DNA of 64,000 nt from Minisyncoccota bacterium (GTDB lineage: Bacteria; Patescibacteriota; Minisyncoccia; Phycocordibacterales; UBA9973): positions 740 to 64,739 of the forward strand of contig JBAZRK010000002.1 in the NCBI GenBank assembly GCA_041663005.1. Direction: 5' to 3'. The notes beneath the pieces are model-generated. The model made no database searches. It saw only the letters and a list, made by a program, of their open reading frames with translations, and was not told the origin of the DNA. The translations under genes were made by a program, and so were the position numbers. Positions within the stretch are counted from its first letter, which is position 1, and the number at the start of each line of letters is the position of its first letter. Of this stretch, positions 1,116 through 45,066 are shown piece by piece.

Positions 1116-2189
1116 TTAACGTTTTGGTATACCAATAAACATTAACTCTCCAAGCATATATGTGTTAATTTTGACCACGGTTGGTGAAATCATATCGAAA
1201 TCAAGTTGACTAGACGACCAAATTGGTCCAAATGTGTCAGTAGCACCTTCGGTATAAGCATATAAAGTAATGCGGTCAAAAGAACCCCCCGCTGGAAGAA
1301 TTTTTGTGTTTATATTAAACGAAATTGCATCACTTTCTGTGCTTTCAAGGGGTGTGGTTCTAAAAAAGTCAGTGAGCCGTAGTATGTGTGACGGAACTGG
1401 TGGCGCTTGAGTTATATCAACTGATGAAATTTTTACATCCTTTGGTACGATTGGCGTTCTTACTATTGTTAGACCACCGGAAGATGTAACCATTTTACTC
1501 GGAAGATTTATTGTAAGACCGTTTAGACTACCAGGTTCAGTAATAGTAATCTTGGAGCCATTGATGGTTGTCATTATGGGTTTACTAGTAGCTATAGGAA
1601 GTTTAAAAGTAATATCTCCAAAAGCTTCTCCGTCTGTCGCTGAAATATGTACGTTGGGAGATGTCCCCTCGGCAGACTTAGGAGGTATCCACGTAAGTCC
1701 GCCAGTCGTGAAATCAATAGTCATACCTGAAGGTCCTTCGAGTAGCGCAAAACGCACAGCAAGAGTGCCTGTATATGTCCATTGTGGATTAATTGTATGT
1801 GATATTTGAGAAGTTAGTGGTGCCGTTAAAGTTGGGGCTGAAATAGTAATTTTAGCTGTGCTGTTGGGAGTACGTTCACCTGTATATATTGATACTGCGT
1901 GGGTATTAAAAAATACTCTGGATTTCGGTCCCACAATTCCATCTCCCGTTAGTTTGTTTGAAATTTGAAATTGAATAACAGCTGCCTTAGTTTTTGGACC
2001 AAACTTCCCGTCGGCAGACAACCCAAGTTGTTTTTGAACGCAAGCAACTTCATCCCCTTTTGAACCTAGTCGCAGAGTATTATTAATTGTGCAATTTGGT
2101 GTAGGGGTTGTAGCTGCGTTTGCGTAATTTAAGTTAAGTAAAGAAAAAATGAAAATAAAGCTAAACAAAACTAATTTATATTTTTTCAT
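1116..2189 (-). CDS. Secreted protein with N-terminal peptidoglycan-binding (PG_binding_1-like) domain
   Basis: Signal peptide MKKYKLVLFSFIFIFSLLNLNYANA, then LRLGSKGDEVACVQKQLGLSADGKFGPKTKAAVIQFQ, which resembles PG-binding domains. The rest is Thr/Ser-rich with beta structure. Confidence 0.7.
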   Translation of the reverse strand: MKKYKLVLFSFIFIFSLLNLNYANAATTPTPNCTINNTLRLGSKGDEVACVQKQLGLSADGKFGPKTKAAVIQFQISNKLTGDGIVGPKSRVFFNTHAVSIYTGERTPNSTAKITISAPTLTAPLTSQISHTINPQWTYTGTLAVRFALLEGPSGMTIDFTTGGLTWIPPKSAEGTSPNVHISATDGEAFGDITFKLPIATSKPIMTTINGSKITITEPGSLNGLTINLPSKMVTSSGGLTIVRTPIVPKDVKISSVDITQAPPVPSHILRLTDFFRTTPLESTESDAISFNINTKILPAGGSFDRITLYAYTEGATDTFGPIWSSSQLDFDMISPTVVKINTYMLGELMFIGIPKR

Positions 2190-3241: not shown

Positions 3242-3934
3242 TTAGTCGTTGTGAACTTCTTCACCGAGCTTAGAAAGCAATCGGGAAGCATGCTCTTTGC
3301 CACCTAGGCCGAAGGCCAAAGCACCAGCTAGAGCAATCATGTACACCAAGCCCTGGAACAAAACACCCATAAAGTCAGCAAGGCCCAATTTGCCAAGTGC
3401 GATTATGAAAGCGAAAACCCAAACCGCATATTTAGCAATACTTGCCAGCATATGTGCTGCCTTCAAGTTTACCGATTTAGACGCTGCGAGCACCGCGCCA
3501 CTTAAAGCCTCAGACACAACTGCCGCGATGATAAGTACAAATGCCGCGATAATAACTTGTGGCAAGTATCCGAGGACGTCCTGCTGCAAGAAAGCGGCAA
3601 CATCATCTAGCCCTACCAAACTAAGCGACGGCAGAAGGAAAATGATTATAACGAACCATCTTACAACTTCCCCCACGAAGTGTCCGCTGTTTAGGTTCAA
3701 GCCAGCTCGTCTTAGGAAAGAGTCTGCGCCAATTGAGGCAAACAAACTATCAATCTTTAAGCTATGGAAAACCTGCTCGATAGCCTTAGATATAAGGGCT
3801 CCTAAAAACCAACCAACAATGAAGAACACAATAGCCAACACTAGATTTGGGGCAAATTGCACAAAGCTTCCAAAAAGACTCTGGAAGGACTCTCTAAATA
3901 CAACGCTCCAGGCAGTCAAAATATTTTGTTGCAT
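3242..3934 (-). CDS. Membrane protein with three MscS-type 'conserved TM helix' repeats
   Basis: Repeated motif (F/Y)xPxLxxAxxxxxxGWxxxxxxSK, e.g. FAPNLVLAIVFFIVGWFLGALISKAIEQ. Multi-TM. Confidence 0.55.
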   Translation of the reverse strand: MQQNILTAWSVVFRESFQSLFGSFVQFAPNLVLAIVFFIVGWFLGALISKAIEQVFHSLKIDSLFASIGADSFLRRAGLNLNSGHFVGEVVRWFVIIIFLLPSLSLVGLDDVAAFLQQDVLGYLPQVIIAAFVLIIAAVVSEALSGAVLAASKSVNLKAAHMLASIAKYAVWVFAFIIALGKLGLADFMGVLFQGLVYMIALAGALAFGLGGKEHASRLLSKLGEEVHND

Positions 3935-10259: not shown

Positions 10260-11897
10260 TTAGTGCTGGTAGAAGCCTCGGGCCTCGGTGTCTGGTAGGA
10301 GGATTAAATTAACGCCGCGAGATTTGCAAAGCTCAATAACTTTTTCGTCGTTGACGGAGCCACTCGTCGAGAAAATTGTTTTAATTCCGCGATTTATGAG
10401 TACCTCTGGCGCATCCGGGAATGGGAAGAAGCTATCACTATAAGCTACGGCATTTTCTAAATCTGCCGGAAATTCGGACGTTGGACGTCCGAATTCTTGA
10501 CGTCCAACGTCCGAATTCTGGGAAAATCTCGCCGCATCATCGGCGCGAAGCAAGGCAAGCTTAGCTGCACCTACCCTGTCTTGCTGGCCAACGCCATTGC
10601 CATACAGTCGGCCATCTTTCACTATAGTTATAGTATTACTATTAGAAGTACTACCAACAGCCCAGGCTAAAATAACATCCTTTTCTTTTACCTCAGGCAC
10701 AAATGTATAGTTGGGTTGAACCATAAATCCTCCACGCACATATCGGAATCGCTTCGCTCCGTCGAGTGCCGACATCCCCGCTTTAGCTATCGCCCTGTTT
10801 TGTAAGAGTCTGCATTTACCTTTTTTGCGGGAAAGAATTTCTATTGCCTCAGGGGAGAATTCTGGTGCAGCAACGATGTCGAGCAAACGTCGCACACCTT
10901 CAGGCGAAAATTTATGAATTAGTTCGTCGGCAATTTTTTCATCCACAGGAAAATTAAGCATCACTGACCCGCCAAAAATTGCGCGCAGGTCCCCCTGAAG
11001 CATTCCATCGATAGCTTCTATATCGCTTGACCCCGTAGCCACACCGCAGGCGTTCCCGTGCTTGGCGCCGATGGCAACGAACGGAACTTCTCCCAGATTT
11101 TTCTCGAACCCCGCGCCGATGTGTGTCATTGTCTGCATCATTCTATCTACGTCACAAATGTTGTTGTAGCTCATCGGGCTTCCAGCCACGAGTTGCCAGT
11201 TCGCAATTGCAAGTTCGTCCACATTTTTAGTATCTAAATTTTTATACAAACTCGCTGGCTTCTGGTAGGCGTTCTCTCCGTACGCGCATTCGATATTCTT
11301 CTGCCCGAAAATTCCCTTGTACCCTTCCGCACTATGATACTCGCCGGAAATCGCGCCGTATCGCGCAATTATCATTTCCGCTTTTGCTGCTAAATTATTT
11401 AGAAATTCTTCACGATTTTCTTCACCGTCCTTGAGCCACTTTACCACCAGCGCCCGGTCCGAAACATCGCACACAGTTATGCGCCTGCCCTTGGCGCTGG
11501 CTCGGAGCATTGTGGGTCCGCCGATGTCGGTTTTCTCAATAACAGACTCGCGCGTAGCGTTCGGGTTTTTCGTTTCTTCCTCAAGCGGATACAAATCCAC
11601 GCACACAAGGTCAATCCAAGGAATTCCATATTTCTCAAGTTCGACGCGGTGCTCGGGAGTATCGAGTGCGAGCAATCCGCCGTGAATTTTCGGATTAAGA
11701 GTGAGGACTCGGTGCGAGAGAATCGGCGGCATTCCGGTAATTTCTGCGACGTCTGTCACCGGCAGGCCCGCCTCTGACAAGTGCTTCGCAGTGCCTCCGG
11801 AGGAAATTATTTTCCACCCCAGGCCCACCAACTCTTTGGCGAAATCGGCAATACCGTCTTTGTTATATACAGAAATTAATGCAGTTTTTTGGTTCAT
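10260..11897 (-). CDS. purH: Bifunctional AICAR formyltransferase / IMP cyclohydrolase PurH, carrying an in-frame repeat insertion
   Basis: N-terminal MGS-like/IMPCH domain and C-terminal AICARFT motifs (GIGAKHGNACG..., YSDSFFPFPD, C-terminal ...GFYQH). A 16-aa insert NSDVGRQEFGRPTSEF is encoded by 1.5 tandem REP copies. Confidence 0.93.
   Translation of the reverse strand: MNQKTALISVYNKDGIADFAKELVGLGWKIISSGGTAKHLSEAGLPVTDVAEITGMPPILSHRVLTLNPKIHGGLLALDTPEHRVELEKYGIPWIDLVCVDLYPLEEETKNPNATRESVIEKTDIGGPTMLRASAKGRRITVCDVSDRALVVKWLKDGEENREEFLNNLAAKAEMIIARYGAISGEYHSAEGYKGIFGQKNIECAYGENAYQKPASLYKNLDTKNVDELAIANWQLVAGSPMSYNNICDVDRMMQTMTHIGAGFEKNLGEVPFVAIGAKHGNACGVATGSSDIEAIDGMLQGDLRAIFGGSVMLNFPVDEKIADELIHKFSPEGVRRLLDIVAAPEFSPEAIEILSRKKGKCRLLQNRAIAKAGMSALDGAKRFRYVRGGFMVQPNYTFVPEVKEKDVILAWAVGSTSNSNTITIVKDGRLYGNGVGQQDRVGAAKLALLRADDAARFSQNSDVGRQEFGRPTSEFPADLENAVAYSDSFFPFPDAPEVLINRGIKTIFSTSGSVNDEKVIELCKSRGVNLILLPDTEARGFYQH
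10471..10518. repeat. REP-like palindromic repeat, 1.5 tandem copies, in frame inside purH
   Basis: AATTCGGACGTTGGACGTCCGAATTCTTGACGTCCAACGTCCGAATT. Core is 9-bp inverted arms TTCGGACGT/ACGTCCGAA. Confidence 0.85.
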
Positions 11898-11966: not shown

Positions 11967-12335
11967 TTATTTTAGCTCTATCTTACCACCAGCATCTTCG
12001 ATTTTCTTTTTCATCTCTTCAGCTTCTGCCTTCTTCATTCCCTCTTTTAGGGTGCTAGGAGCGGCGTCAACTAAATCTTTAGCTTCTTTCAAGCCCAAAC
12101 CGAGAGCTTCCTTCACAACTTTCATCACCGCGATTTTCTGTTCGCCGGCTGAAGCGAGGACAACGGTGAACGCATCCTTCTCTTCTGCTGCTTCGGCACC
12201 TGCTGCGCCACCTGCTGGAGCGGCAGCTACGGCTGCTGCAGAAACTCCGAACTTTTCTTCAATAGCCTTCACAACTTCATTCAATTCAAGAGTTGTAGCT
12301 TTGTCTAACCATTCCAATAATGTATCTTTGTTCAT
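11967..12335 (-). CDS. rplL: 50S ribosomal protein L7/L12
   Basis: Ala-rich hinge, then C-terminal ...[22 protein letters not shown]...KIELK. Confidence 0.95.
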
Positions 12336-12385: not shown

Positions 12386-12865
12386 CTATTTCTTCTTCGA
12401 CACTTCGCTCAAAGCCAAAGCAAAACGTTGCATTGGGCTCTTCATCAAGAACGCCAACTTCGAAAGCAATACTTCCTTCGAAGGGATGGTTGCAATCTCA
12501 GTCATATACACTGCATCCACAAATTTTCCATTGAAAATTCCTCCAAGGATATTGAGCAATCCTTTGTTGGTTTTCTGAAAATTGTAAACTTCTCGTGGAG
12601 ATGATGTAGCGTCCTTAGAATACGCGATAGCTACCTCGCCACCAAGTTCTGGCAGTTCTCCTTCCGCCTTGCCTTCAAGGGCACGCTTCAAGAGAGTCTT
12701 TCGAGAAACTCGGTAGTTCACTCCTTTTTCTCGGAGCGCTGTTCGAAGTTTCGTTTCGTCGGCTACTTTAAGACCATGGAAATTAACAAAGACCAAAGAT
12801 TCGGAGTTTTTAATTGCTCCTTCCAAGTCCTTTATCATTTCCGCTTTTCGTGATTTTTGTAACAT
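12386..12865 (-). CDS. rplJ: 50S ribosomal protein L10
   Basis: Lies directly upstream of rplL. Typical L10 N-terminal region (KAEMIKDLEGAIKNSESLVFVNFHGLKVADETKLR). Confidence 0.88.
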   Translation of the reverse strand: MLQKSRKAEMIKDLEGAIKNSESLVFVNFHGLKVADETKLRTALREKGVNYRVSRKTLLKRALEGKAEGELPELGGEVAIAYSKDATSSPREVYNFQKTNKGLLNILGGIFNGKFVDAVYMTEIATIPSKEVLLSKLAFLMKSPMQRFALALSEVSKKK

Positions 12866-12890
12866 GTTTTGCGTCGAGTACTTTTCAAAT

Positions 12891-12973
12891 AACTTTTCGC
12901 AGGGGTTTCGAGACTGTCGAGTCGAGAATTTCAGGATTTTTTAAGCTTCAAAAAATCCGTACCGAAGAAAAGT
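12891..12973. repeat. ~85-nt hairpin-rich repeat, copy 1 (inverted relative to copy 2)
   Basis: Contains GGATTTTTTAAGCTTCAAAAAATCC and AGGGGTTTCGAG...CGAGAA. About 85% identical to the reverse complement of 29200..29298. Confidence 0.6.
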
Positions 12974-13154
12974 TTATGTTGGAAAGTAACCTAATAATAA
13001 AAAAACGGCTTTAGCCGTCAGAAAATCGACCCACTAAATAGGATTTACAAGCCTTTTCTCTGGCCTACCTATCTTCTCTGCGGTTTACCCGAACACTTAT
13101 ATTTAAGTGTGGGAGTGTCTTCAATATATCACTTATTTAGATTTTTGCAACCCT

Positions 13155-13306
13155 ACTCCCCGACCTCAACAGTCGCTTCTGCGGTCGGAGTTTCTGTCCC
13201 TGCCCGGGTACCTTCATCCTTGCCATACATATTAACCAAATATATGCCCACCATCCCGAGCGCAATCATCGCGGTGAACGTCGCTAAAATTTTTACGAAA
13301 TGTTTC
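13155..13306 (-). CDS. Possible small membrane/secreted peptide, ~50 aa (below the ORF-track cutoff)
   Basis: My own translation of the minus strand: MKHFVKILATFTAMIALGMVGIYLVNMYGKDEGTRAGTETPTAEATVEVGE. One TM segment. Speculative. Confidence 0.2.
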
Positions 13307-13337
13307 ATAATTGTGCCTTTAGTATAGCAAATTTATC

Positions 13338-13705
13338 CTAAATCCTAACAGTTGACTGTTCCCTGAAATAGTTGTACCTTAAGGTCGGAGGTACCGCATA
13401 ATGCGGACAAAAAGCAAAGTAGTCCCGAGTTCGAGCTCTCACGAGAAAAGAGTTCTCCTTCGCAAGGGGGAGAAAACCGATGCGCGCCACGAGCGGCGTG
13501 CAGGGGCGATCGAGAACCGCGACGCCGCCGAGTGGGAAAACCACCTCGAGCGCGAACGGCGAAAGCTCTACGCGAGCTGACGCCAAGCTGGGCGGGACGC
13601 AAGTCCCGCCTGGCCACAACTTAACATCCACGAATCTCCACTTAGCGAGGTTCGTCACGCCTCGCATAGAAAACGCGAGGCGTTTTCTTTTTCTCTTCTC
13701 CTCTT
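13338..13705 (+). ncRNA. GC-rich noncoding island, candidate structured RNA of unknown class
   Basis: About 62% GC against the ~42% background. No protein-like ORF. Promoter-like TTGACT at 13351. GNRA-capped hairpin GGGCGGGAC-GCAA-GTCCCGCC. Terminal hairpin AAAACGCGAGGCGTTTT plus T-run at 13669..13694. Confidence 0.3.
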
Positions 13706-13790
13706 TTCTTCCGCTTATTCTCAAATTCCTTAACCTATCATATATAATATATTAAGAAAAAACTCAGTGCTAAACTTATGAATTAAATGT

Positions 13791-17402: not shown

Positions 17403-18101
17403 TCATTCGGACGTTGGACGTCCGAATGTGGGCGATGGGTCATCCTCGATATTTTCAAGGCCCCTCTCTGCGCGAACAAACGAAACAACGTTTAAACATT
17501 CTTTTTTATAATTTTCATTGCCTCCATAAAACTCGAGGACCTCTCCTGCTTCTTTCTCGCTAACTAGTATGAAATTTTTAGTATCGTATTCTTTTTCGCT
17601 AGACAAGACCAGGTGCATTCTTTCCTTTGGTATATTGTGAACCATATAATTAACATGCACGTAAGGACGAATTTTTAAAAAATAGGGCTCGTCGTCTATT
17701 AACTGTGATTTAAATCGCCCCTGGAACAAAGCACCGGTCCTGCTGTGTACCAGATTGAAGTATTTTGTATAACCTCCGAGCAAACGTTTGAAAAACTCGG
17801 AGATTCCGCCATCCACCTCCTGCTTTAAAATAAAATGAAAGTGGTTGGGGTTAAAGCAGTATGCAACAATAGACACCAGCGGATTCGGACGTCCAACGTC
17901 CGAATCCGCTGGTTTTTTGTGTTTTTTATCTTTAATGCTCCCTATCGGCACAACTGAGTTGAACTCTTTTGCGCTTAGGGCAAAACGGTCTAAGTCTTTC
18001 TTGCTGGAAAAAATATCCCGCTTATCCACACCCCTGTTGTAGATATGATAATACTCCCTGGTTACGAGAGGGTCTTTCCTCATATCTATATTATAAAGCA
18101 A
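17403..18101 (-). CDS. IS200-like HuH Y1 transposase, probable REP-associated tyrosine transposase (RAYT)
   Basis: YYHIYNRGVDKRDIF (COG1943/RayT-type N-terminus), HuH motif HFHFIL, GALFQGRF, and a C-terminal Tyr-bearing segment RPYVHVNYMVHNIPKE. Flanked by inverted REP copies. One REP is in frame internally (ADSDVGRPNP) and another forms the C-terminus and stop (FGRPTSE*). Confidence 0.7.
   Translation of the reverse strand: MLYNIDMRKDPLVTREYYHIYNRGVDKRDIFSSKKDLDRFALSAKEFNSVVPIGSIKDKKHKKPADSDVGRPNPLVSIVAYCFNPNHFHFILKQEVDGGISEFFKRLLGGYTKYFNLVHSRTGALFQGRFKSQLIDDEPYFLKIRPYVHVNYMVHNIPKERMHLVLSSEKEYDTKNFILVSEKEAGEVLEFYGGNENYKKECLNVVSFVRAERGLENIEDDPSPTFGRPTSE
17405..17427. repeat. REP copy (loop TTGGA) at the 3' end of the RAYT gene
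   Basis: ATTCGGACGTTGGACGTCCGAAT. Confidence 0.85.
17881..17907. repeat. REP copy inside the RAYT coding sequence
   Basis: GGATTCGGACGTCCAACGTCCGAATCC, a 27-nt perfect palindrome. Confidence 0.85.
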
Positions 18102-23883: not shown

Positions 23884-24437
23884 AATTTTTTTCTAATTTG
23901 CTACGCCATTAATTAGTTTCGACAAAACTAAAAGCGTATATTTCACTATCATCATTTCCTCTTCCGCTAATAACTTATAATTGTTAATAATGAAGCGGAT
24001 TAAAAAATAATGAACAGAGATAAACTAACATTGAGAACAAAACACTTTACTATTCTGTTTTCAATGGGCTTTATTTTCTAACAAGATTTTTTCGACGAAA
24101 TCCGGAAAGAAAATAAATAACTTGCGCATACAGGACACACAATAAAGCGCGGCCTGTAAACACAACAACATTATAATATACCGCTTCAAAACTAAGCAAT
24201 ATACTATGTGGATAACTTGCTCTTTTAGCAGTCTCCTGAAAGTTAAGACGTAACTACGCCCGAAAAATTTCAGTGTCGAGCCATCTAGCAGAGCATATCC
24301 GACTCATATATATTCGCATATTTAGGGTTAAAATGCAACCCACCCGGACAGTGGATAGGGTGGATATGCTGTCGGGTTAGGCGAGGAAATAGCGACTCCC
24401 CGCCTACGCCAAGGCTTCGGACGGGCAGGCACCGTTT

Positions 24438-41330: not shown

Positions 41331-44300
41331 CTATTCAATAATCACTTCTTTTTCCACTTTTGCGCGGAAAATTAAATTGTTGATTTTTATTTCTTCGCCG
41401 TCATTATGAGCAAATTTTATTTCCGAGGCCAAAACGGTTTTCTTCAAATCCGTTTCGAATTTACCCACGAGCTCCTGCCCGGCAGTGTTTGTATCGATTA
41501 TGAGCTTCACTGTGTCGCTCGGAGTGAGGCCTGTTTTCTTGCGTAGCTCCTGAAGCGCACGCACTAACTCGCGGTAATTTCCTTCTTCTTTAAGCTCCGC
41601 AGTCAGCTCTGTATCGAGCTCTAGGTCGGGTGCCATATTTTTATCCTCTTCAACTTTTTTGATATTGAGTTCCTCGGCAATTATGTGCTGGAATTTCTGC
41701 GGCAGCGTAATTTTTATTTTTATTTTTGTAAGCGGCTGCTTTACTGGCAGGTTCTCAAGCTGTCTCGCTTTCAGTCCGGCTGAAACGATGTTCCTTACAG
41801 TCTTCATATCTAGGATTATTTTCCTGACTTTACCTTTTTCAAAAACCACCTTGATTTGCCCGATTATATTTTTCGTCGGCCAGCTTTCTAGGTGTACGCT
41901 TTCCTTGTCGCCCGCTATGCGAAGCCTCTGCCAGATATCCTCCGCGGCGAAAGGTGCAAAAGGCGCAAGCAACTTGGAAAGGGTCTTCAGTACGTAGTAG
42001 AGCGTTCGTTTCGCATCATTATCTCCGTCTTTTATTCTTTCGCGGGAACGTCGCAAATACCACGTCGACAGGTCGCCAATGAAATCCCTAATCGCGCGAA
42101 CAGGTTCAAGGAGTTTGTAACTATCCATACTTTTAGTCATCAAATCTATGAGCTCATCCATTCGGCCTAAAATCCAGATATCCAAAACGTTTTGAGTTTG
42201 GGGGCGTACATTAGTCTCGAGGGCTTCGTCGCGATACAATTCATAGAAGAAAAGTACATTGTAAAGCAGACCGAATACCTGGCCCTGGAGAAGGGCAACA
42301 GTTTTCTCGTCGAAATTTTTAGACTCGCCCGGCTGGTTCACAGAATACATCCAAAGCCTAAGAGTATCTACACCATATTTATCCATAGCTTCCCAAGGGT
42401 CTACAATGTTCCCGAGAGATTTAGACATTTTTTTGCCCCTGGAATCCATTAAGTGTCCTAAGCAAATCACGTTTTTAAATGCTTTACCTTTACCCATTAG
42501 TACACCAATAGCGTGCAGAGTGTAAAACCATCCCCGGGTTTGATCTATAGCTTCGGCGATGAAGTCCGCAGGGTAACCCTTGCCTTCCACCCACTTTTGA
42601 TTTTCAAAAGGGTAGTGATCCTGGGCAAAAGGCATCGCTCCAGAGTCAAACCAAACATCCATAACTTCTTTCGTGCGGACAAGTTTCCCGCCACAATCGC
42701 AGACAAGATTAATTTCATCAATGTATGGACGGTGTAAATCAAGTTCATAAGTTTCGTTGTGAGGAAGTGGTACAAAAGCAAGCTCAGAAATTTGAGCATT
42801 ATCCACACTTGGAAGATGATTAAGCCCCACCGTCAATTCGCTGTATGACAAATTCTTAACAATAAAATTTAACGAGCGGATTACCCCGTCATGGCTACTA
42901 ATAAAAATATTTTTATTCGAATATTTCTGTTCCAGCTCATAAATAAATTGCCCCACACGCTTTACTAGTTCGACAAAGCTCTCCCCTCCAGGTAAAGCTT
43001 CTCTGGGGTTGTAAAAGAATCCCTGGCGATAATAATCCAAAAATTCAGCCGGGTCCTTACCATCGAAAACGGTACTAGTTTCCCACTCCTGGATGCGTTT
43101 GTCGTAGATAACTTGCTCCAAAGGAAAGTTTAACTCTTCACAAAGAATTTTCGTAGTTTCTCGCGCCCTATTGTAAGGAGAAGAGATAACAATATCAATT
43201 TTTTCCTTGAAATTTTTAGCACTTCCTAGCACCTGAGATTGGCCCACGTCAGTCAAATGTGCGATCTCTTGCAGCTTCTTTGTATGTATGTTTTCTCGAA
43301 GATTATTCCCAGCTTGTCCGTGGCGCATTACGAAATATTTGTTGCCGGATTTCTTGGTTCGAGCCTCAAGGTCTGCGACACTGCCTAAGACTTCAATTTT
43401 TTTACATTTCTCGCAGTGCCAGACAGGAAGCGGCGTACCCCAGTAGCGCTCGCGTGAGATAGCCCAATCTTTAATTTCCCGCAGCCACTCGCCGAAACGC
43501 CCTTCGCGGATGTGCGACGGTTCCCAATTTATGTCCTTGTTCTCAGTAATCAGCGCGGATTTTATTTTCGGATCCGACATTTTTATATACCAAGAATCTC
43601 GCGCATAATAAATAAGCGCGGTGTGACAACGCCAGCAATGCGGATACGAGTGCTCATATTTTTCTTTCTTATATAGAAGCCCGCGGTGCGCTAAATCCTT
43701 GATTATATCCACGGCAACTTCTTCGTCTTTAACAAATCTGCCCTCAAAGATTCCGGTGCCTGGTAAAAATTTCCCATCAAGCCCCACCAAGTGGTGCTTC
43801 GGCAAGCCTACTTCAACCCCGAGGAGAAAGTCGTCTTGCCCGTACATCACAGCGGTGTGCACCACGCCCGTACCATCGTCGGTGGTGACGAAGTTCGCCT
43901 TGTGTACCTTGTAAGCTTTTTCCAATTTTGGTTTTTCACTCTCGGGAATTGTGTTTAAGAAATATGGGAACAGGGGTTCGTACTCTAGGCCCACTAAACC
44001 CTCCCCTTTTATCTCCTCTACAATCTCGTATGGGTCGGCAATGATGGAGAGTTGTGCTTTCGCTAGGAAATAAAATTCATTTGTAGCGTCTTTAGCAACT
44101 TTAATTTTTACATAATCGATATCCTGCCCCACTGCCAGCGCCACGTTCCCTGGCAAGGTCCATGGTGTCGTGGTCCAAGCAAGGATGTATGTGTTGTCAG
44201 CGCCTTTAATCTTAAATTTAGCAGTGACCGATAAATCTTTCACATCCTCGTAACCCTGAGCAAGCTCATGTGAAGACAGCACCGTACCGCACCTTGGACA

Positions 44301-44849
44301 CCAAGGCACAACTTTATAATCTTTATAAAGAAGTTTCTCCGCGTTTACTTTCTGGACGATATTCCAAACTGATTCTATGAAATTATTGTGATAGGTAACG
44401 TACGGATTTTCTTGATCCACCCAGAAACCGATACGGCGAGTAAACTTGTTCCAAATATCCAAATATTCCCAGACACTTTCTTTGCATTCTTGGTTGAATT
44501 TAGCGATACCGTATTCTTCAATAGCTTTCTTGGAATTAAGTCCGAGCTTTTTCTCCACTTGAAGCTCCACGGGTAGGCCGTGCGTATCCCATCCTCCTTT
44601 CCGGCGGACATGATACCCCCGCATTGTTTTATAGCGAGGTATCGCGTCCTTGAACGCACGTGCTTCCAGGTGGTGAATGCCTGGCTTGCCGTTCGCCGTC
44701 GGCGGACCTTCGTAAAAAACAAATTCTTTTCGCCCCTTCGACTGATTCAGGCTTTTCGCGAAAATTTTATTCTCTTTCCAGAATTCCAAAATACGCTCTT
44801 CACGCAGTGCCGTCTCACTTTTTTTATTTAAATCTTTTTCTTCTTGCAT
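41331..44849 (-). CDS. ileS: Isoleucine--tRNA ligase carrying an inserted histidine-phosphatase (PGAM-like) domain
   Basis: HIGH (PGIHH) and KMSKS motifs and a CP1 editing region. About 200 aa inserted between ...VLGSVADLEARTKK and DLHRPYIDEI, containing FVMRHGQAGNN and ISSHDGVIRSL (the RHG...H catalytic signature). 1172 aa. Confidence 0.93.
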   Translation of the reverse strand: MQEEKDLNKKSETALREERILEFWKENKIFAKSLNQSKGRKEFVFYEGPPTANGKPGIHHLEARAFKDAIPRYKTMRGYHVRRKGGWDTHGLPVELQVEKKLGLNSKKAIEEYGIAKFNQECKESVWEYLDIWNKFTRRIGFWVDQENPYVTYHNNFIESVWNIVQKVNAEKLLYKDYKVVPWCPRCGTVLSSHELAQGYEDVKDLSVTAKFKIKGADNTYILAWTTTPWTLPGNVALAVGQDIDYVKIKVAKDATNEFYFLAKAQLSIIADPYEIVEEIKGEGLVGLEYEPLFPYFLNTIPESEKPKLEKAYKVHKANFVTTDDGTGVVHTAVMYGQDDFLLGVEVGLPKHHLVGLDGKFLPGTGIFEGRFVKDEEVAVDIIKDLAHRGLLYKKEKYEHSYPHCWRCHTALIYYARDSWYIKMSDPKIKSALITENKDINWEPSHIREGRFGEWLREIKDWAISRERYWGTPLPVWHCEKCKKIEVLGSVADLEARTKKSGNKYFVMRHGQAGNNLRENIHTKKLQEIAHLTDVGQSQVLGSAKNFKEKIDIVISSPYNRARETTKILCEELNFPLEQVIYDKRIQEWETSTVFDGKDPAEFLDYYRQGFFYNPREALPGGESFVELVKRVGQFIYELEQKYSNKNIFISSHDGVIRSLNFIVKNLSYSELTVGLNHLPSVDNAQISELAFVPLPHNETYELDLHRPYIDEINLVCDCGGKLVRTKEVMDVWFDSGAMPFAQDHYPFENQKWVEGKGYPADFIAEAIDQTRGWFYTLHAIGVLMGKGKAFKNVICLGHLMDSRGKKMSKSLGNIVDPWEAMDKYGVDTLRLWMYSVNQPGESKNFDEKTVALLQGQVFGLLYNVLFFYELYRDEALETNVRPQTQNVLDIWILGRMDELIDLMTKSMDSYKLLEPVRAIRDFIGDLSTWYLRRSRERIKDGDNDAKRTLYYVLKTLSKLLAPFAPFAAEDIWQRLRIAGDKESVHLESWPTKNIIGQIKVVFEKGKVRKIILDMKTVRNIVSAGLKARQLENLPVKQPLTKIKIKITLPQKFQHIIAEELNIKKVEEDKNMAPDLELDTELTAELKEEGNYRELVRALQELRKKTGLTPSDTVKLIIDTNTAGQELVGKFETDLKKTVLASEIKFAHNDGEEIKINNLIFRAKVEKEVIIE

Positions 44850-45066
44850 AATATTTTATAAAACAAAAAACCCGTCCCCGTGCAACTAATAATAATTGCA
44901 CAAGGACGAGTTTTCTCGTGGTACCACCTTGTTTGCTTCTCATAACACCGGGTTCTACTAACCTTGCGGTTTTCTTCCCCAGGCTCCAGGGTGATCCTTG
45001 CCCGCCTCTGGCGGGGCCCCTTCAATGCCTATACATAAAGTATAACACGTTTATATATTTTTTCAA
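44850..45066 (-). promoter_or_regulatory. T-box riboswitch-like leader for ileS (Ile AUC specifier), with promoter and intrinsic terminator
   Basis: Promoter -35 TTGAAA (45061..66), 16-nt spacer, -10 TATACT (45039..44). T-box sequence AAGGUGGUACCACG (44916..44929), against the AGGGUGGUACCGCG consensus. Candidate specifier GGAUCACC (AUC at 44992..94). Terminator CGUCCUUGUGCAA...UUGCACGGGGACG-U6 at 44864..44908. Confidence 0.6.

Follow-up and report, generated by a model that had tools for sequence, protein, structure and literature searches.

To our knowledge, the non-coding RNAs of CPR bacteria (Patescibacteria) are almost unstudied. In AT-rich genomes, long GC-rich intergenic regions are recognised as being enriched for structured RNAs (PMC8723152, PMC11109978). 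The candidates of the GC-IGR and DIMPL screens of the Breaker laboratory (PMC8723152, PMC11109978, PMC6429828) combine a GC-rich intergenic region in an AT-rich genome with a stable predicted fold, a promoter-terminator layout and no sign of coding; these pipelines name a motif only when several covarying homologues are at hand. Among the known families, RNase P RNA has diverged forms in CPR bacteria: in 10 of 35 complete CPR genomes, it needed thresholds below the noise cutoff (PMC8172020).

Here we describe a GC-rich, hairpin-rich island of about 370 bp at positions 13338–13705 of a 64,000-nt stretch of DNA from a Minisyncoccota bacterium, hereafter the window. The island resembles the screen candidates in its genomic setting, its stable predicted structure, its lack of a coding signal and its promoter-terminator layout. 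It differs from the named motifs in having no covarying homologue, which would leave it in the ‘unassigned’ bin of the screens. With RNase P RNA and its diverged CPR relatives (PMC8172020), it shares a length of about 300 nt, high GC content, multiple hairpins and GNRA loops, but its helices are local and perfect rather than long-range, and it has no P1, no P4 and no covariance-model signal. Its composition, the z-score of its fold, the lack of an Rfam family and its absence from relatives together define it as a candidate orphan structured RNA unit on the plus strand.

Composition, conservation and neighbourhood of the island

The island is sharply bounded. Its GC content is 0.62 in the interval 13400–13599 and 0.60 in 13500–13699, compared with 0.32–0.46 in the flanks. 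The 200-nt stretch that starts at 13451 reaches 0.64, the maximum across the window. The initial annotation had singled out this region as GC-rich, and the measured values of 0.60–0.64, against a window mean of 0.44, bear this out. The tetranucleotide CGAG occurs ten times in the island; its enrichment was discarded as a signal, because it derives from the CTCGAG-type stems and its phase is not significant.

The closest L10 homologues of this genome belong to Candidatus Paceibacterota/Nomurabacteria, within Patescibacteria. Three assemblies that represent one strain carry the island at 100% identity, namely the window itself, contig k141_162974 of ENA ERZ27249449 and a Logan contig from run SRR18595301, with a separate sequencing run among them; the loci L007, L093 and L094 have this identical sequence. 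It is therefore a real feature of the genome and not an assembly artefact. As the copies, retrieved through exact-protein look-ups, are all 100% identical, they contain no SNPs and offer no variation to analyse.

We compared the locus with 90 rplJ loci from relatives, comprising the closest L10 relatives (identity 89% and below) and 80 GTDB species representatives. Using nhmmer, the island was found in none of the 90 loci, whereas the rplJ leader described below was found in 54. Neither blastn nor a single-sequence covariance model detected the island in the relatives' loci, and a covariance model of 13449–13612 matched only itself in 685 kb. The initial annotation had listed a lack of conservation in relatives among the findings that would speak against its reading, and this lack is what we observe. 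The block formed by the small ORF, the leader, rplJ and rplL is kept in relatives, and similarity ends at about 13335, which places the island exactly at a synteny breakpoint. Because no homologue was found, there is no covariation to assess.

In searches of larger collections, an exact 29-mer of the island had no match among genome contigs, and an exact 19-mer had one chance match among metagenome contigs. Back-translated searches returned nothing from viral contigs in three reading frames and nothing from metagenome contigs in one frame, the latter run being possibly saturated by a low-complexity peptide pattern. A blastn search against phages and plasmids gave chance fragments only. There is no second copy of the island in the window or in the relatives' loci. 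Terminal inverted repeats, tandem repeats and a target duplication are absent; the only flanking repeat is 8 nt long, which is at chance level. Two sites in other genomes were considered as possible relatives of the island and rejected. A GC-rich spot in L085 is a coding low-complexity linker. In L001, the closest other genome, a 420-bp uncalled stretch (3405–3835) separates the small ORF from the rplJ leader. This stretch is rather GC-richer than its surroundings, has a z-score of about −3 on both strands and contains a possible 79-aa Cys-rich ORF, but its sequence is unrelated to that of the island.

On the left side of the island, the minus strand encodes rplJ (12386–12865) and rplL (11967–12335), and then purH. 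Immediately upstream of rplJ is a conserved leader (12866–13110, minus strand) with an attenuator terminator at 13004–13019, identified by nhmmer, alignment and a terminator scan. Next is a 51-aa membrane ORF (13153–13308, minus strand) that has its own TATACT box just upstream; it was recognised from the ORF list, the relatives' loci and a box scan, and it is also conserved. On the right side, a 128-aa membrane ORF and a 1052-aa LCAT/beta-helix protein are both encoded on the minus strand. The island is thus not immediately upstream of rplJ but is separated from it by two conserved elements, the leader and the 51-aa ORF. Nor do the loci of relatives support the view of the initial annotation that rplK-rplA would be expected here. 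All inspected Nomurabacteria/Paceibacterota loci are without rplK-rplA upstream of rplJ, and they are also without the island. The missing rplK-rplA pair characterises the lineage as a whole and has no connection with the island.

The rplJ (L10) leader is comparable to the island in that it is a structured RNA adjoining rplJ. It is, however, a conserved and separate element on the minus strand, whereas the island, on the opposite strand and with a gene in between, lacks conservation. The leader has a promoter of the form TTGCAA-16-TATATT (13150–13123) and a core consisting of ACCGCAGAGAAGAUAG, a variable hairpin and UAAAUCCUAUUUAGUGGGUCGAU, followed by the attenuator terminator (13019–13004). 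It matched no Rfam family, L10_leader included, at E ≤ 1, and possibly represents a form of the L10 leader particular to CPR bacteria.

The window also contains REP-like palindromes of the form ATTCGGACGT-NNN-ACGTCCGAAT, located at 10471–10517, 17404, 17875, 18100, 18151, 18555, 18851 and 19575. They cluster around an IS200-like Y1 transposase ORF (17403–18101, minus strand), and one double copy is in frame within the purH ORF.

Predicted fold and transcription signals

The plus strand of the region 13375–13700 has a minimum free energy (MFE) of −143.2 kcal/mol, corresponding to a z-score of −6.4 against dinucleotide shuffles, and none of 100 shuffled sequences folded as well. The minus strand of the island folds at −139.8 kcal/mol with a z-score of −3.5. 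The two whole-region energies are near equal, which speaks against a small RNA on the plus strand. When energies are summed hairpin by hairpin, the plus strand amounts to −117.0 kcal/mol and the minus strand to −99.7 kcal/mol, a difference of 17 kcal/mol, and seven of the ten hairpins are more stable on the plus strand. This asymmetry arises because G·U pairs on the plus strand become A·C mismatches on the minus strand. The loops on the plus strand are A-rich, and two of them are GCAA.

The plus strand folds into about ten local hairpins arranged one after another. At the 5′ end, H1 (13375–13393) and H2 (13394–13406) enclose a GGAGG sequence (13388–13392) and an ATG (13401). They are followed by an A-rich segment (13407–13452, ACAAAAAGCAAAGUAGUCCCGAG...), which is the longest weakly paired stretch in both the MFE and the centroid structures and the only plausible accessible segment. 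The central hairpins, together spanning 13453–13584, are H3 (13453–13474), which has a GCAA loop, H4 (13481–13502), H5 (13505–13526), H6 (13527–13551) and H7 (13557–13584). H8 (13587–13614) consists of a 12-bp helix with a GCAA tetraloop and is worth −24.3 kcal/mol on the plus strand compared with −18.4 kcal/mol on the minus strand, the helix being unbroken on the plus strand alone, owing to two G·U pairs. The GCAA-capped hairpin that had been read earlier as GGGCGGGAC-GCAA-GTCCCGCC is indeed present, at 13590–13610. H9 (13631–13656) is a hairpin of 8–9 bp, whose 3′ arm GCGAGG (13645–13650) could pair alternatively with CCUCGC (13660–13665) in the terminator.

The bulk of the z signal traces to three perfect hairpins at the 3′ end. 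The 3′ 117 nt of the island, which contain these hairpins including the terminator, have a z-score of −6.7 and an MFE frequency of 0.38, and the remaining 180 nt, which coincide with a 59-aa ORF (13401–13580), reach only −2.3. When z-scores are computed in sliding segments along the window, the island falls within the top 1–2% of them, but ordinary terminators and REP palindromes have equally low or lower z-scores. Thermodynamics alone therefore does not single out the island. Perfect helices, moreover, occur more typically in terminators or young palindromes than in long-established structured RNAs. The local terminators and REP palindromes resemble the island in having perfect stems, strongly negative z-scores and intergenic positions. 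They differ from it in architecture: the terminators are single A-tract/T-tract hairpins and the REPs share one common sequence, whereas the island, which is unique and spans 370 bp, strings together ten GC-rich hairpins that are unrelated in sequence.

The terminator scan and the fold both identify an intrinsic terminator on the plus strand at 13657–13695, with a ACGCCUCGC / GCGAGGCGU stem followed by UUUUCUUUUUC. The stem (13657–13683) contains nine base pairs, of which seven are G-C, and is followed on the plus strand by TTTTCTTTTTC; the GC-rich stem-loop and the immediate U-run that characterise an intrinsic terminator are thus both present. This matches the terminal hairpin and T-run placed on the plus strand by the initial annotation. 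Nested within the region is a symmetric hairpin, AGAAAACGC-GAG-GCGTTTTCT (13668–13688), which reads the same on both strands and was reported by the scan. On the minus strand, no hairpin in the island is followed by a T-run. There is also no other gene on the plus strand upstream that would need the terminator of the island.

A putative weak promoter can be read at 13352–13380 on the plus strand, consisting of TTGACT (13352–13357), a 17-nt spacer and TACCTT (13375–13380). The −35-like box had been noted before, although one base off, at 13351. The box itself is there, but its only partner is the weak TACCTT, the pair was not accepted by the consensus promoter scan, and TTGACT is unlike the boxes ahead of most genes in this genome. 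Across 50 gene starts in the window, most genes have a TAnAAT box 5–12 nt ahead of the ATG, implying that mRNAs are largely leaderless, and a Shine-Dalgarno-like motif is found in only 3 of the 50.

Coding potential and known RNA families

Four ORFs are open across the island: 128 aa and 90 aa on the minus strand, and 59 aa and 91 aa on the plus strand. The earlier statement that the island has no protein-like ORF was loosely worded in view of these frames, but it stands in the sense that none of them has a credible homologue. Open frames on both strands are expected at 62% GC. None of the four ORFs matched Pfam, NCBIfam or PHROGs, the 90-aa and 91-aa frames having been compared with family libraries only. 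The 128-aa antisense ORF (13338–13724) is present in public annotations, in which gene calls place a ‘hypothetical protein’ of 109 to 128 aa over the island (13338–13724 of the window, minus strand; 2172–2501 in L007; 2585–2971 in L094). A search of 5.8 billion proteins returned only self matches for this ORF. An exhaustive HMMER search of 1.84 billion representatives added a single match, a T/S/G-rich repeat protein of 36% identity, which is compositional. Most likely the ORF is spurious, opened by the high GC content. The significant protein match to a pseudogene remnant that the initial annotation had named as contrary evidence was not found, and the absence of a credible ORF homologue in any library searched speaks against an origin as a piece of a gene from a GC-rich donor.

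On the plus strand, the ORF list includes a possible small protein of 59 aa (13401–13580, MRTKSKVV...RKLYAS) with GGAGG 9 nt upstream of its start. It had no homologue among the 5.8 billion proteins, and not even an entry for itself. The GC content at its three codon positions is 0.63, 0.48 and 0.70, with a chi-square of about 8 at 6 degrees of freedom for a sample of only 60 codons.

To compare the island with known RNA families, Rfam 15 was scanned at gathering thresholds over the window and in permissive local scans over the island. The gathering scan of the window returned only the 23S rRNA fragment at 1–711. In the permissive scans of the island, the best match had an E-value of 0.6, and only unrelated families appeared. 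Across the entire window, ARAGORN detected neither a tRNA nor a tmRNA gene. The initial annotation could not match the island by eye to known families, and the Rfam/Infernal scan that it proposed confirms this, with nothing below E = 0.6 in the island. A diverged T-box in the same window serves as a control: it was detected at 38.3 bits (gathering threshold 93) with E = 2.5e-7. Diverged known families are therefore visible in this genome, and the negative result for the island is meaningful.

Several families were also considered individually. Readings as SRP, 6S or tmRNA were rejected on inspection. Readings as a retron RNA, an omega/reRNA or a CRISPR-associated RNA were likewise rejected; the neighbourhood of the island contains no gene for a reverse transcriptase or for a Cas, IscB or TnpB protein, and no integrase gene. 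The island resembles a T-box leader (RF00230) in two respects: its GGAGGUACCGC (13388–13398) is similar to the T-box core GGUGGUACCGC, and its 3′ end has a terminator/alternative-pairing logic. A T-box leader, however, has an antiterminator that overlaps the terminator and an aminoacyl-tRNA-related gene downstream, and the island has neither. The AGGU of the island is unable to pair with the NCCA end of a tRNA, and the motif is located at the 5′ end of the island. As the T-box-like string lies 270 nt 5′ of the terminator, with no plus-strand gene downstream and no covariance-model match, the T-box reading was rejected.

Competing readings of the island

Based on these observations, we tentatively suggest, with somewhat less than even confidence, that the plus strand of the island encodes a structured small RNA about 300 nt long, which would be young and confined to the strain or species. 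Three elements of this reading are firm, namely the structure signal, the asymmetry between the strands and the terminator, and the stabler hairpins, the A-rich loops and the T-run confined to the plus strand favour an RNA on that strand. It is also in keeping with a small RNA that the island is the highest-GC stretch of an AT-rich, streamlined genome, as judged from the 64-kb window. The small RNA would form a stand-alone transcription unit extending roughly from 13387 to 13692. Transcription would start at the weak sigma-70-like promoter TTGACT-17-TACCTT, back-to-back with the divergent promoter of the 51-aa ORF, and the transcript would fold as a chain of about ten GC-rich hairpins, two of them capped by GCAA. 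It would end at the GC-stem and U-run terminator, whose region also faces the convergent LCAT/128-aa operon. Its likeliest action would be that of a stable trans-acting or protein-binding RNA, with the A-rich segment 13407–13452 as its sole accessible part. Speaking against a small RNA are the lack of a homologue, the weak and atypical promoter, the origin of most of the signal in three hairpins and the position at a breakpoint. The initial annotation had left the choice between an unclassified structured RNA and a degraded foreign fragment. Both readings survive; the structure is real and favours the plus strand, but it is not conserved.

The main rival to the small RNA is a functionless remnant. 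Under this reading, a rearrangement, or a piece of foreign or mobile DNA, would have left the island behind where the conserved rplJ block meets a variable AT-rich block. The hairpins would have come with the donor sequence, and the terminal one alone would be in use, as a terminator. We consider such a remnant possible, though on the doubtful side. It would fit with the absence of the island from all relatives, with the stop of synteny at about 13335, the island's left edge, and with a composition unlike both flanks, and the IS200-like Y1 transposase and the many REP-type palindromes 4–6 kb away show active DNA shuffling. The weak, atypical promoter, the ‘too perfect’ helices and z-scores resembling the values for terminators and REPs at other sites in the window point the same way. 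Yet neither DNA nor protein searches revealed a donor-like homologue, the island lacks terminal inverted repeats, a target duplication and a second copy in the window, and it is unlike the local REP family. The strand asymmetry, being based on G·U pairs, suggests pairing at the level of RNA rather than DNA, and a neutral 370-bp GC-rich insert would be expected to decay fast in a streamlined, AT-biased genome. Another possibility is that the island is an intergenic spacer acting on the minus strand, where it would separate the LCAT/128-aa operon from the 51-aa ORF/rplJ units as a terminator, an insulator or a site of RNA processing. We regard this as unlikely, since the individual hairpins are weaker on the minus strand, none of them carries a T-run there, and the loops would be U-rich UUGC instead of GNRA. 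Nearly all genes here are on the minus strand, which also beats its shuffles (z = −3.5); the symmetric hairpin at 13668–13688 lies about 100 nt past the stop of the 128-aa ORF, and promoter-like minus-strand sites at 13773–13744 are directed into the island. However, relatives do without such a spacer, and a single terminator would suffice, so that 370 bp exceeds the need.

A plus-strand transcript could alternatively be the mRNA of a highly charged 59-aa protein, with a GGAGG site and a structured 3′ UTR that includes the terminator. The GGAGG (13388–13392) and the ATG (13401) form one of just two GGAGG-N5-10-ATG sites on the plus strand of the window, the frame is open to 13580, its codon-position GC pattern is shaped like that of a GC-rich gene, and the ORF part is far less structured than the 3′ part. 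This reading is nevertheless quite unlikely. The protein has no homologue and no family match, its base usage by codon position does not reach significance (chi-square about 8, 6 df), and we estimate a chance of about 10% for a 59-codon open frame at the GC content of the island. Its GC is far from host codon usage, the Shine-Dalgarno sequence and the ATG are buried in H1 and H2, and such motifs precede only 3 of 50 genes in a genome whose mRNAs mostly look leaderless. Turning to known RNAs, an extremely diverged universal RNA, most plausibly RNase P RNA, is hardly credible. The P4 helix of RNase P RNA is formed by CR-I (GGAAAGUCC...) paired with CR-V (ACAGAA..GGCUUA). We take AAAGU/AGUCC (13416–13425) and UCCACGAAUCUCCACUUA (13627–13644) of the island to recall, loosely, the CR-I and P18-CR-V regions of E. 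coli M1 RNA. By inspection, however, P4 would be at most about 5 bp, between AAAGUAG (13416–13422) and CCACUU (13639–13644), and the CR-V-like string is tied up in H9, a perfect local hairpin, of which it makes up the loop and an arm. There is no terminal P1 pairing in the island, and RF00010, RF00011 and other RNase P models all score under about 11 bits in two permissive local scans. The size of about 300 nt and the GNRA-capped hairpins would suit RNase P RNA, and CPR members of this family are known below Rfam thresholds (PMC8172020). Taken more broadly, the proposal that the island is the first member of a new Paceibacterota structured RNA class, or a universal RNA of the RNase P type that has diverged too far to be recognised, is very unlikely; relatives would then have to exist elsewhere in related genomes, too diverged for exact-word and local searches.

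Should the island be transcribed, as the small-RNA reading has it, it would represent one more lineage-specific small RNA in a CPR bacterium and would illustrate young structured RNAs arising at rearrangement junctions. It is a single-genome orphan without comparative support and opens no long-standing question. Two lessons concern method. Gene callers put a protein of 109 to 128 aa, most likely spurious, over the island, and Rfam gathering thresholds miss diverged CPR RNAs, as seen for the T-box in this window (38 bits compared with 93).

Three further observations were made in the window. The T-box is a reduced leader of 136 nt (44899–45034, minus strand) with GGUGGUACCACG in its antiterminator and a terminator to about 44865; it sits upstream of a 1172-aa ORF (41331–44849), and since its 38.3 bits are below the Rfam gathering threshold of 93, standard annotation would miss it. 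A 555-bp intergenic region (23884–24437, minus strand) has no Rfam match and a GC-rich start, and its segment 24121–24240 folds at z = −7.6. Finally, the 5′ end of the 23S rRNA gene, at 1–711 on the minus strand, is preceded not by 16S rRNA but by a gene for a PG-binding-domain protein (1116–2189, minus strand). The rRNA genes are therefore unlinked, as reported for many CPR genomes (PMC8172020).
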